DNA from: Alphaproteobacteria bacterium | GTDB lineage: Bacteria; Pseudomonadota; Alphaproteobacteria; JAGPBS01 | Direction of reading: 5' to 3' | NCBI GenBank assembly: GCA_018063245.1 | Contig: JAGPBS010000002.1 | Span: forward strand, 1-56,188 | DNA length: 56,188 nt | Part shown: in pieces, positions 1,204 to 4,989 of the stretch | Numbering within the stretch: the first letter of the stretch is position 1 | How the letters are laid out: each line of letters starts with the position of its first letter | The notes under the pieces: model-generated | Told to the model about the DNA's origin: nothing | The model's database searches: none | What the model saw: only the letters and a program-made list of their open reading frames with translations | Program-made: the position numbers and the translations under genes

Positions 1204-2469
1204 TTATTTCCATAATTCAGTGACTTGAATGCCGATTTGTTTTTCGATCTGAACCAATTGACCTTTACCGATGCTTTTTCCATTTGCTTTAATGGTGATC
1301 GGAGAGTTTAAGTCAATGCCTATATTGATTTGATAGCCCTCTGTGATTTTTTGAGTTTGATCAAATGGCATATTGAGGCTTGCCAATTCAAACACCATTT
1401 TCACGGGAAGAGCTGCAAAATTTGTTGCATTGGGTTCGCTTTTTGCCTTTTTTGCAGTGGCAACAGGGGCAGCGGCAGGCATAGGAGGCATTGCAGGTGG
1501 TGTTTGAGGCGCGAGAGCTTCTTCTGGTTCTTCTTCGTCAAGGTGATCGAGTATTTCTTGATCTTCTGGTTTAAGAGTCTGATCATCCTCTGTTTCTTCC
1601 TCATCTAGATCGTCTTCATCTTCATCGTCAAAATCATCAGATAAGAATTCGTCAAGATCGAAATCATCATCTTCGTCACCCATGGATATCTCCTTTTCAA
1701 ACATTTTTTCTATCGTTAAGGTTTGATTGCTCAGCTTGCCCAAGAATGAGCCAAGTCCTGGCAAAATGCCAAATATTTTTTCATGATTCAGGCGATAAAA
1801 AGCTTTGTCACAAAGAATGACGTCTTCTTTTTCTAAGCCTTTTAAATCATCAAATGAAAGTCTTGTTTGTCCCATAATTAGGGGGATGCGTGCATTGGTT
1901 TTAAATGATGCAATGCCAGCAGGACTTGATCGATTCACCAAAGCTTCCAGTGCATTGAGGCCGCTTAAATCTGTTTCAAAAATGCCATTAATGGTTGATT
2001 GATTTTGTTTGTCGGTAAGAGTGAATGAGAAAGTAAAGGCGTTTTGCGGATCAATGAAGGCTTTGTCATCTGGTTTAGAAGTCGCTGTATTTGTGAGTTG
2101 GAGATGATGGATTTCAATTTTTTGATTGAATTTTTGCTCTAAGGTGGCCAAAAACTCATCGAAAGCAACTTCAAGAAGAGCGTTGCGCACAGGACTTACG
2201 ATCTCTGTCATCGTGGCTTCAGGATATTTTGTTTTGAGATAGTCAGCAAAAAAGAATGACTGAAGCTTGATTGCAAAAGGAACATTGTTCATGGATGCAT
2301 GAATTTCAACTTCAGGCTTTACTTTGATTGAGTCAGGCAAAAATGTCAAAGTCATAGCTTTGCCTGCAAAGGGTAGAATGACACTGTCCTTCAAAGCCAG
2401 CAATGCATTGCGTGCAAGATGAAACTCTTTTGAGATGCTTGGAATTTTTTTTGTTTGGATCATTGACAT
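1204..2469 (-). CDS. sctQ: type III secretion cytoplasmic ring / sorting platform protein SctQ (YscQ/HrcQ/SpaO family)
   Basis: The C-terminal ~70 aa (INIGIDLNSPITIKANGKSIGKGQLVQIEKQIGIQVTELWK) is a typical SpoA/FliN-type domain. Position is immediately after sctN-sctO-sctP. A long acidic then Pro/Ala-rich linker covers aa 264-346. Confidence 0.8.
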   Translation of the reverse strand: MSMIQTKKIPSISKEFHLARNALLALKDSVILPFAGKAMTLTFLPDSIKVKPEVEIHASMNNVPFAIKLQSFFFADYLKTKYPEATMTEIVSPVRNALLEVAFDEFLATLEQKFNQKIEIHHLQLTNTATSKPDDKAFIDPQNAFTFSFTLTDKQNQSTINGIFETDLSGLNALEALVNRSSPAGIASFKTNARIPLIMGQTRLSFDDLKGLEKEDVILCDKAFYRLNHEKIFGILPGLGSFLGKLSNQTLTIEKMFEKEISMGDEDDDFDLDEFLSDDFDDEDEDDLDEEETEDDQTLKPEDQEILDHLDEEEPEEALAPQTPPAMPPMPAAAPVATAKKAKSEPNATNFAALPVKMVFELASLNMPFDQTQKITEGYQINIGIDLNSPITIKANGKSIGKGQLVQIEKQIGIQVTELWK

Positions 2470-2494
2470 GGTGATATTTTACTAAGCTGCTTGA

Positions 2495-3178
2495 TTATGC
2501 TGATTTTTGTTCTGATTCATCCTGCGGGGATGCCTCTTGCTTTGTGCTTGATTCATGGTCGCTATTTTGACCAAGATCCAGAGAAGTACCGTCTTTGACG
2601 CTCACTTGATAAGAATCGCCAAGTCTTTCAGCGAGCATATCTTTGTAAAGAGCAATTGTTTGAACGGCTCTGATATCATTGGCCTCGAAGTGAACTTGGA
2701 TTTTTCCATTCTGCAATTGGCTGAGTTGAATTTCTGTATTTTGGAGAATGTCTTGTTTCACAGAGATTCTTACATCAGGGCCAACCTCCGATGCGCGGAT
2801 TGAAATGAGGTCAACAACACGGTTAATTTCATCGATCAATTTTTGATTGCCGTCAGACACGCCTTGTGATTGAATTTTGCCAATTGACATATTGTCTGAT
2901 GATTCTAAGAAGTTGATATTAGCCATGCCGAGTCTCATCCCTCTTGGATCAACGAAGGTTTCTTTGTCATCATCTGAGTCTGAAGATTGTTTCTTAGATT
3001 TTTTTGCTTCATCGAGAGCACGTTCAAAATGATCGATGTCATCTTTGTCATAAGGGCTGTTTTTATCATCAGCTCTTTGTGTGCTGAAGTCAGGTTTTTT
3101 GAGCTGTGCAGAAAGATCTGGCATTGCTTGAGTTTGTTTTTGTGAGGTCGCTGTCATATTTTTAAAGTCCGTTGTCAT
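2495..3178 (-). CDS. sctP: type III secretion needle-length / substrate-switch protein SctP-like (FliK_C / T3S4-like C-terminus)
   Basis: 227-aa ORF. The C-terminal segment VRISVKQDILQNTEIQLSQLQNGKIQVHFEANDIRAVQTIALYKDMLAERLGDSYQVSV follows the FliK/YscP C-terminal pattern (LxLxPxxLGxvxvxl..g.l.v.f.a). It occupies the sctP slot between sctO and sctQ. Confidence 0.55.
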   Translation of the reverse strand: MTTDFKNMTATSQKQTQAMPDLSAQLKKPDFSTQRADDKNSPYDKDDIDHFERALDEAKKSKKQSSDSDDDKETFVDPRGMRLGMANINFLESSDNMSIGKIQSQGVSDGNQKLIDEINRVVDLISIRASEVGPDVRISVKQDILQNTEIQLSQLQNGKIQVHFEANDIRAVQTIALYKDMLAERLGDSYQVSVKDGTSLDLGQNSDHESSTKQEASPQDESEQKSA

Positions 3179-3673
3179 TTAGTTTTCCCATTCTTCTCTT
3201 GGTCCTATTGAAACCGAGGTTGCTTGTTCTTCCATTTCACCTTCTTCAGTTCGTTCAGCTTCAAAGGCTTCTTCTTCTGTCACAACCGTCAAGATTTCTC
3301 CTGTTTTTTCAGTATTAATGACTGCTTGTGAATAATCTTTTTTTGAGTCCATGTAAGCGTCATGTGCATTTTCTTTTTCCTGAAGGGCGTCATCTCTTGC
3401 TTTAACGTAATCTTGTTCCTGTTCTTTGTTATGAATGATCTCAAGTTTCAGAGAATCAATATCTTTAACATAGACTTTTTTCTTTAAGATATTGTTATAA
3501 AGCCTATTCTCCTCTTTAATGCGCCATTCTTGGTAGTCTAACAATTCTTTCTCTTTTTCTTCAACCTTTTTTGTGGCCTGTTCAAGAATCTGCTCTCGGC
3601 GTTTCATTTCATTAAAAGCCGATTCTTCTCTGATCTTTTTGATCTTAACAATATCAGCAATCTGTTGCTTCAT
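3179..3673 (-). CDS. sctO: type III secretion stalk protein SctO-like (YscO/FliJ-like coiled coil)
   Basis: 164-aa, highly charged, heptad-rich (K/E) protein. Its start overlaps the sctN stop (ATGA) and its stop abuts the sctP start. The call rests on position and composition only. Confidence 0.55.
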
Positions 3674-4989
3674 GTAACAAGCCGTTGAAGTTGATTAACA
3701 GTATCTGTAAAGCCAAATTTTTCATCAGTTCCTTGTTTCAAGAAGGATTTAATTCTGTCAATTTTGGCAATGGCTTCATCGGTTACGCGATCGTTTCCTT
3801 CTTTATACTCGCCAATTTTGACAAGTAATTGAACATCTTCATATTTAGACATCAATTCACGGGTGCGACCAGCAGCTTTTATATGAGCCTCTGGCACAAT
3901 ATTGGTCATGACGCGGCTTACGCTGCGTAAAACGTCAATCGCAGGATAATGATTTTCAGCGCCCAATTTTCGAGAGAGAATAATATGTCCATCGAGAATT
4001 GACCTTGTTTCATCAGCGATGGGTTCAGTCATATCATCGCCCTCAACGAGAACGGTATAAAGAGCTGTAATCGATCCTTTGTCAGAATTACCAACACGCT
4101 CCATGAGTCTTGGAAGAGATGCAAAGACACTTGGCGGAAACCCACGCCTTGTTGGCGGCTCGCCCGCGGCAAGGCCAATTTCACGCAAGGCACGCCCAAA
4201 TCGTGTGACTGAATCCATGAGGAATAAAACCCTTTTACCCTGATCTCTGAAATATTCAGCAATCGACGTTGCAACATAGGCTGCTTTTGCGCGCTCCATC
4301 GATGCTTTATCAGATGTGGCGACAACAATGACAGAATTTTTCATGCCTTCAGGGCCAAGGTCATGTTCTATAAACTCGCGGACCTCACGTCCCCTTTCAC
4401 CAATCAGCGCGATGACGGTGACATCAGCAGATGAGCCTTTCACAAGCATCGAAAGAAGCGTGGATTTACCGCCGCCAGCAGCTGCAAAAATTCCCATTCT
4501 CTGGCCTTCACCACAGGTGAGAAGCCCGTCAATGGCTTTAATGCCTAGAGGTAATGGTTTTGTGATGATTTTTCTTTTGAGAGGATCAGGCGCATCGGCA
4601 AAGACAGGGTAATAATCGACAGCATCTATCTCGCCTTTTTCATCTACAGGCTGCCCCATTCCATTGAGAACGCGGCCTAATAAACCAGGGCCTACAGGAA
4701 CAACGTGCTGACGGCCAGTAGGGAGAACTTCAGTATCAGTGGAGACGCCCGTCATATCGCCAATCGGTGTTAATAGGGCTGCATCTTTAATGAAGCCAAC
4801 AACTTCAGCATAGAGCTCTTCTTCAACGCCGGGTGTTCTGAGAACGCAGATTTCTCCGAGTTTGACTGTAGGCACGACCGCGCGGATGATGGTTCCAATC
4901 ACCTGCAGAACACGTCCCTTGATTTCAATCAAGTTTGTTTCTTGAATGCTCGATTTCAGGATAGCTGGGATGTAGTCTAATTCACTCAT
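3670..4989 (-). CDS. sctN: type III secretion ATPase SctN (YscN/InvC/HrcN family)
   Basis: 439 aa. Walker A is [14 protein letters not shown] and Walker B is [41 protein letters not shown] and [16 protein letters not shown] closely match injectisome ATPases. Confidence 0.93.

Follow-up and report, generated by a model that had tools for sequence, protein, structure and literature searches.

The sctN-O-P-Q block of an uncultured alphaproteobacterium as a probable module of a dispersed Ysc/Bsc-family injectisome

In the bsc locus of Bordetella, the injectisome ATPase gene bscN immediately follows bscL (PMC7498569). The Yersinia virB operon (yscN-U) is a single plasmid operon, in which yscR-U are found directly after yscQ. 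Chlamydiae have their type III secretion genes dispersed among small islands (ten operons at five loci; PMC2734247). Here we describe a block of injectisome genes in a contig assigned to Alphaproteobacteria bacterium (NCBI GenBank assembly GCA_018063245.1, contig JAGPBS010000002.1), whose full length of 56,188 nucleotides was analyzed, hereafter the window. Four consecutive minus-strand open reading frames (ORFs; window 4989..1204) correspond to sctN, sctO, sctP, and sctQ. They probably constitute the sctN-O-P-Q operon of a Ysc/Bsc-family injectisome that is dispersed over at least three chromosomal loci and whose products would form one apparatus in trans.

The first gene, sctN (3670..4989, minus strand, 439 aa), encodes the injectisome ATPase. 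Its product scored 770 bits with the SctN equivalog NF005391 (cut-off 657) and 653 with TIGR02546 (cut-off 605), stayed below the cut-offs of all three FliI equivalogs (clades 1-3), and contains the Pfam domains ATP-synt_ab and T3SS_ATPase_C. Its top matches in PDB were type III secretion system (T3SS) ATPases with 518 bits, compared to 352 bits for FliI, and its Walker A and B, catalytic Glu, and Arg-finger regions are identical to those of functional relatives. The start of sctO (3179..3673, minus strand, 164 aa), coding for the stalk protein, overlaps the sctN stop (ACATGA, i.e., an ATGA overlap); SctO matched PF07321 YscO (4e-23) and, weakly, the YscO structure 4mh6 (E = 0.003). The ATG of sctP (2495..3178, minus strand, 227 aa) immediately follows the sctO stop (TAAATG). 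This gene encodes an SctP-like needle-length and substrate-switch protein with a C-terminal T3S4 domain; no PDB match was found for it, and its position between sctO and sctQ is the same as in Bordetella and in two related genomes, L087 and L088, discussed below. After a spacer of 25 nt comes sctQ (1204..2469, minus strand, 421 aa), encoding the sorting-platform pod or C-ring protein, in which the last SpoA domain is preceded by an acidic, proline-rich linker. SctQ matched FliMN_C (1e-13) and, over residues 346-419, the PDB entries for YscQ-C and SpaO-C. All three junctions were read directly from the DNA. The identity, order, and tight coupling of the four genes had been proposed in an earlier sequence-only reading of this DNA, and the ORF positions, the matches to hidden Markov models and PDB, and the junctions bear this out.

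A second product could possibly be made from sctQ. A Shine-Dalgarno-like AAGGAG is found 7 nt upstream of the ATG at 1683 (Met263 of sctQ), and this methionine is conserved in L087, L088, and the sister strain L124. By analogy with the internal starts of YscQ and SpaO, translation from this site (candidate feature 1204..1683, minus strand) would yield an SctQ-C protein that takes in the acidic linker.

Further apparatus genes were found in a genome of the same species, the JGI metagenome contig 3300056850 Ga0558718_00008 (2,075,286 bp), on which sctN, sctO, and sctP are nucleotide-identical to those of the window; identical genes are also present on many Logan contigs. About 105 kb of this genome was read, covering the sctN region (L001), an R-S-T-U locus (L126), and a TPR-I-J-K-L locus (L128). 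On this contig, sctN occupies 552.2-553.5 kb. A TPR gene, an ORF in the sctI position, and sctJ-K-L lie at 341.8-345.5 kb (J-K-L at 343.0-345.5 kb), about 205 kb from sctN. The sctR-S-T-U genes (613.0-615.8 kb), followed by genes for a chaperone of the CesT family, a kinase resembling RsbW, and a STAS antagonist, are about 60 kb away on the strand opposite to sctN. Six of the products exceed their equivalog cut-offs: SctJ (protein P0407; TIGR02544, 216 vs. 162), SctL (NF005392, 202 vs. 159), SctR (TIGR01102, 269 vs. 209), SctS (TIGR01403, 109 vs. 76.5), SctT (TIGR01401, 243 vs. 163), and SctU (protein P0414; TIGR01404, 401 vs. 358); SctK matched PF06578. The flagellar equivalogs (FliI, FliP, FliQ, FliR, and FlhB) all scored below their own cut-offs and below the Sct equivalogs. 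The TPR gene gave weak CdsG/LcrH-like (SctG-like) and HrpB1 matches. The 212-aa ORF between it and sctJ stands where L087 has sctI, and its similarity to the SctI of L087, itself recognized by T3SS_basalb_I (1e-4), is weak (E = 0.076). The right end of the window and the beginning of the R-S-T-U locus overlap, sctR being about 6.5 kb past the end of the window's contig. The search for other injectisome genes suggested in the sequence-only reading thus recovered sctJ, K, L, R, S, T, and U on one 2.07-Mb contig. The first SctJ and SctU homology matches named only the contigs of 90%-cluster representatives; an orphan module, with sctJ and sctU absent from the species, was considered and rejected, as both genes are on Ga0558718_00008 among the cluster members.

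The closest relatives place the system in the Ysc/Bsc family. In a GTDB genome scan, the named SctN proteins with the highest identity among the matches listed were those of Alcaligenaceae, Achromobacter, and Bordetella (72% identity), followed by Photorhabdus (66%), the rhizobial Rhc systems of Bradyrhizobium and Mesorhizobium (55-61%), and Chlamydiae (57-59%). These nearest SctN relatives, the presence of a YscK-family protein, and the gene order of L087, which is that of Bordetella, all agree, and judging from sequence the injectisome is of the Ysc/Bsc family and not chlamydial. An alphaproteobacterial host, as initially suggested, is supported by AddA and AddB from the window, which exceed the cut-offs of TIGR02784 and TIGR02786, equivalogs of the alphaproteobacterial type, and by the NCBI name "Alphaproteobacteria bacterium" borne by non-window proteins of the same genome. 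For the Holosporales, to which the present organism is not assigned, a review mentions the type VI secretion system, not the T3SS, as the secretion system.

The gene order of the relatives suggests how the present layout arose. L087 (NCBI GCA_041166445.1), with 78% SctN identity, has a contiguous cluster TPR-I-J-K-L-N-O-P-Q-R-S-T-U-CesT, next to which no SctC, SctD, or SctV gene was found. In L088 (87% SctN identity), N-O-P-Q is isolated between unrelated genes, and J-K lies on the opposite strand at a distance of 8 kb, while the relatives L121 and L123 have isolated R-S-T-U or S-T-U. Since L087 is contiguous and L088, L121, and L123 are split, fragmentation is derived within this lineage, with N-O-P-Q behaving as a unit.

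Compared with Bordetella, the likeness extends beyond SctN: in L087 the I-J-K-L-N-O-P-Q-R-S-T-U genes are followed by one for a CesT/BscW-like chaperone, and in the present genome an RsbW-like kinase and a STAS antagonist are encoded beside apparatus genes, as are BtrW and BtrV (PMC7498569). However, the cluster studied here is broken between sctL and sctN and between sctQ and sctR, its parts being distributed along about 270 kb of chromosome; its host is an uncultured alphaproteobacterium with a GC content of about 40%; SctP is a short protein of 227 aa, a long acidic, proline-rich linker is present in SctQ, and the chaperone gene is not followed by bscC. With the Yersinia virB operon the block shares the N-O-P-Q order, the tight coupling, the YscK, YscO, and YscQ-type families, and the possible internal SctQ-C start, but a methyltransferase gene comes after sctQ, and R-U is about 60 kb away on the chromosome. 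The lack of an upstream sctL is odd relative to the Bordetella-type order only, not to the Yersinia order.

The parallel with Chlamydiae drawn in the sequence-only reading holds for layout and fails for sequence. As in the chlamydial Cds system, apparatus genes occur in several small loci, and a Neptunochlamydia genome with the order CdsD-?-TPR-I-N-O-P-?-Q-Pkn5 likewise has no L before N and no R after Q. Yet SctN is closer to the Bsc type than to CdsN (see above), the chlamydial YscO-like protein belongs to PF16789 whereas SctO belongs to PF07321, and the block has no flanking CdsD or Pkn5 gene. As L087 is still contiguous, fragmentation in this lineage evidently took place independently of, and more recently than, the chlamydial scattering, as far as gene order indicates.

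The four genes are under purifying selection, with constraint similar to that of neighboring housekeeping genes. Ratios of non-synonymous to synonymous substitution rates (dN/dS) were calculated between L002 and the sister strain L124, at dS of about 0.06-0.45; L002 is a strain type identical to the window in the nucleotides of sctO, sctP, and sctQ and differing in sctN by three synonymous substitutions, and L124 retains the fdxA-N-O-P-Q-methyltransferase synteny. The ratios were 0.05 for sctN, 0.09 for sctO, 0.08 for sctP, and 0.13 for sctQ, compared to 0.03 for metG and 0.155 for the methyltransferase gene. No indels, gaps, or frameshifts were found in the four genes relative to L124, and all strains and relatives examined retain intact ORFs for them. 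Comparisons with L088 and L087 were unusable for dN/dS, as dS was saturated. Purifying selection on all four genes argues against decay.

The following scheme is proposed, its mechanism being derived from established T3SS biology. An ancestral contiguous cluster I-J-K-L-N-O-P-Q-R-S-T-U was probably broken by rearrangement between sctL and sctN and between sctQ and sctR. A single inversion with one breakpoint between sctQ and sctR could account for the separation of N-O-P-Q from R-S-T-U, and its reversal would restore N-O-P-Q-R-S-T-U. The products of the three loci would assemble in trans into one apparatus, in which SctQ, perhaps together with SctQ-C, would form with SctK and SctL the sorting-platform pods holding the SctN hexamer. 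Coupling of SctN to the export gate SctRSTU(V) would be the task of SctO, and SctP, secreted early, would switch the specificity of SctU. The RsbW/STAS pair may regulate secretion, as do BtrW and BtrV in Bordetella (PMC7498569). Genes near the loci include ones for LRR (leucine-rich repeat), Sel1, and Fic proteins, which are candidate substrates.

Several observations weigh against a complete dispersed injectisome. The HpaP/T3S4 match of SctP (PF09483, residues 121-189) is marginal (24.9 bits; gathering score, 23.8) but agrees with the position of the gene, and SctQ, with 88 bits, falls under the TIGR02551 cut-off of 100.8. In the approximately 105 kb of genome read (L001, L126, and L128), neither SctV, SctC, and SctD nor SctF, SctW, and translocators were located, leaving the completeness of the machine unproven; the presence of SctV, SctC, SctD, and SctF, as well as assembly into one machine and secretion activity, are presumed here. 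Finally, a DNA scan of JGI metagenomes with an SctJ alignment, using two patterns only, returned 29 loci, and Ga0558718_00008 was not among them. The dataset was probably outside the scanned collection, or the two patterns were not matched; as sctJ is demonstrably on the contig, this miss is uninformative. The same absence of SctC, SctD, and SctV, which extends to the surroundings of the contiguous cluster in L087, would also be expected if the lineage had kept three modules of the machine without a canonical secretin, SctD, or SctV and used them in a reduced or hybrid way, for example with a borrowed flagellar FlhA, or for secretion only to the periplasm or surface. We consider this unlikely: Chlamydiae and Yersinia normally carry SctC, SctD, and SctV in separate operons, the absence applies to about 105 kb and is not genome-wide, and SctP, a partner of the needle and SctU, is under constraint, which implies a machine that forms a needle. 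A more specific form, in which G-I-J-K-L, N-O-P-Q, and R-S-T-U are all that is kept by an undescribed eukaryote-associated alphaproteobacterial clade, with a reduced or hybrid apparatus (e.g., with an FlhA gate) and a convergent Chlamydia-like layout, is quite unlikely.

The sequence-only reading had left two outcomes for the block, a functional but dispersed injectisome in a symbiont lineage or a decaying remnant. That N-O-P-Q is a non-functional leftover of a lost injectisome might be suggested by the loss of its usual neighbors, by the IS481 element and strain-variable genes adjoining the block, and by SctV, SctC, and SctD not having been located in the region read. This reading, which we regard as very improbable, is largely refuted by the intact state of all four ORFs across the strains and relatives examined, by dN/dS values of 0.05-0.13 and the lack of indels at dS of about 0.4, by intact catalytic motifs, and by seven further intact core genes in the same genome, of which J, L, R, S, T, and U exceed equivalog cut-offs. 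The dispersed, intact, and selected character of the system is thus supported, whereas a symbiotic lifestyle is conjectural: the genome (about 2.07 Mb) encodes CheR and CheB, glycine cleavage enzymes, and a PEP-CTERM exopolysaccharide system, and, given CheR/CheB and the glycine cleavage genes, it is not that of a strongly reduced endosymbiont. The presence of CheR and CheB on the same contig suggests a motile organism, and FliI, FliJ, FliK, and FliN are homologs or analogs of SctN, SctO, SctP, and SctQ, so that the block could be a misread set of flagellar export genes (fliI-fliJ-fliK-fliN-like). This is almost certainly not the case. The clustering of SctN with FliI, considered in the sequence-only reading, is contradicted by the scores: SctN is over the SctN cut-off and every FliI equivalog under its own, PDB matches agree, the nearest named SctN proteins are encoded in Bsc/Ysc loci, and the YscO, YscK, and SctL/R/S/T/U injectisome families match, not FliJ/H/P/Q/R/FlhB.

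The flanks of the block and the remaining content of the window are as follows. Upstream of sctN, at a distance of 78 nt, lies the ferredoxin gene fdxA (5068..5406, minus strand; NF045490 FdxA, 162 bits vs. cut-off 135), which is not a T3SS gene; this flank is kept in L124 and not in L088. Downstream, 43 nt from sctQ, there is a gene for an S-adenosylmethionine (SAM)-dependent class I methyltransferase (231..1160, minus strand; Methyltransf_31 and Methyltransf_25), occupying the place of sctR in contiguous relatives; in L087, sctR is found directly after sctQ. The window scan thus agrees with the initial description of these two neighbors and of the lack of adjacent sctL or sctR/S/T/U. A terminator-like GC hairpin with a T-run, identified as a consensus match only, is present upstream of fdxA (5497..5514, minus strand) and likely represents the 5' boundary of the transcription unit, judging from its sequence. 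No terminator-like site was found between fdxA and sctN; fdxA is possibly co-transcribed with sctN, and the methyltransferase gene may belong to the same transcript. In the promoter scan, sigma-70-like sites were fewer than in shuffled sequence, and no promoter is proposed. Among the scanned remaining ORFs of at least 100 aa (a few were unscanned), no further T3SS genes were found in the 56-kb window. Its other genes include housekeeping ones, for acyl-CoA dehydrogenase, ManC, LolA, FtsK, AddA/AddB, TsaE, globin/Rrf2, MreBCD, and PBP2, as well as an XrtA/PEP-CTERM exopolysaccharide cluster, and genes for two LRR proteins and a Sel1-repeat protein, in line with the eukaryote-like repeat proteins initially noticed. 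The exopolysaccharide locus (38936-48000) contains genes for Poly_export and Wzz/GNVR proteins, a pepcterm ATPase (TIGR03015), an outer-membrane protein (TIGR03016), a DUF3473 deacetylase, a FemAB-like protein, and a glycosyltransferase. A gene for a PEP-CTERM-tailed protein (5537-6463) adjoins fdxA.

Strain variation is concentrated next to the block. While the window and the JGI strain (L001, L004) have sctN, sctO, and sctP with 100% nucleotide identity, window positions 231-1985, comprising sctQ codons 162-421 and the methyltransferase gene, have diverged: in the 3' two-thirds of sctQ, overall identity is 96.2% and the acidic tract contains a 6-nt indel, and in the methyltransferase gene, identity is 94.9%. 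There are 27 synonymous and 12 non-synonymous codon differences in sctQ. From this pattern, the segment looks like a recombination tract beside an island that varies among strains: L001 carries IS481 and Fic there, L002 and L124 a STAND-like ATPase_2 gene. Positions 1-138 of the window match the far side of the IS481 element in the JGI strain, and a 21-bp unit is repeated in 3.9 copies at 131-211; an insertion sequence is thus the probable site of the break in the NCBI contig on this side. At the other end, an ORF of more than 849 codons with Sel1 repeats (53640-56188, plus strand) runs off the contig. It has 83.6% nucleotide identity to the JGI strain, compared to about 99% for the compared window region of approximately 1-6.5 kb, and encodes a fast-evolving protein with eukaryote-like repeats.

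Genes for LRR proteins are found in the window (11660-12397, minus strand; 47968-48927, plus strand) and in L126 (7097-8140, minus strand), where one divergently precedes sctR. The latter protein has weak matches to the LRR regions of the Xanthomonas type III effectors XopL and XopAC. On sequence grounds, the LRR proteins are candidate effectors. An extra Fic-domain gene (2386-3480 in L002 and L006) lies beside the LRR gene matching window 11660-12397 and is absent from the window and from the JGI strain. A large unannotated protein of 1044 aa is encoded divergently beside TPR-I-J-K-L (L128, 5554-8688, minus strand); it has a similarly placed 495-aa counterpart in L088 (2905-4392, plus strand), with 31% identity in a 128-aa C-terminal stretch (E = 9e-16), and might act as a translocator, tip protein, or effector specific to the lineage. 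The genes for the RsbW-like serine kinase and the STAS anti-sigma antagonist (L126, 11584-12388) come right after sctU-CesT, about 62 kb from sctN.

These results show that an uncultured alphaproteobacterial lineage with a genome of about 2.07 Mb and about 40% GC maintains genes of a Bsc/Ysc-type injectisome under selection, and the LRR, Sel1, and Fic proteins of this lineage point to contact with eukaryotic cells. The understanding of how T3SSs work is unchanged, as this appears to be an ordinary system with a scattered layout. Chlamydiae are the best-known case of fragmented T3SS loci; in the present lineage, breakage evidently occurred independently and at the same module boundaries, between sctL and sctN and between sctQ and sctR, which bears on the question of which sub-operons act as indivisible units. 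Genome-mining tools that require co-localized T3SS genes would undercall such systems.

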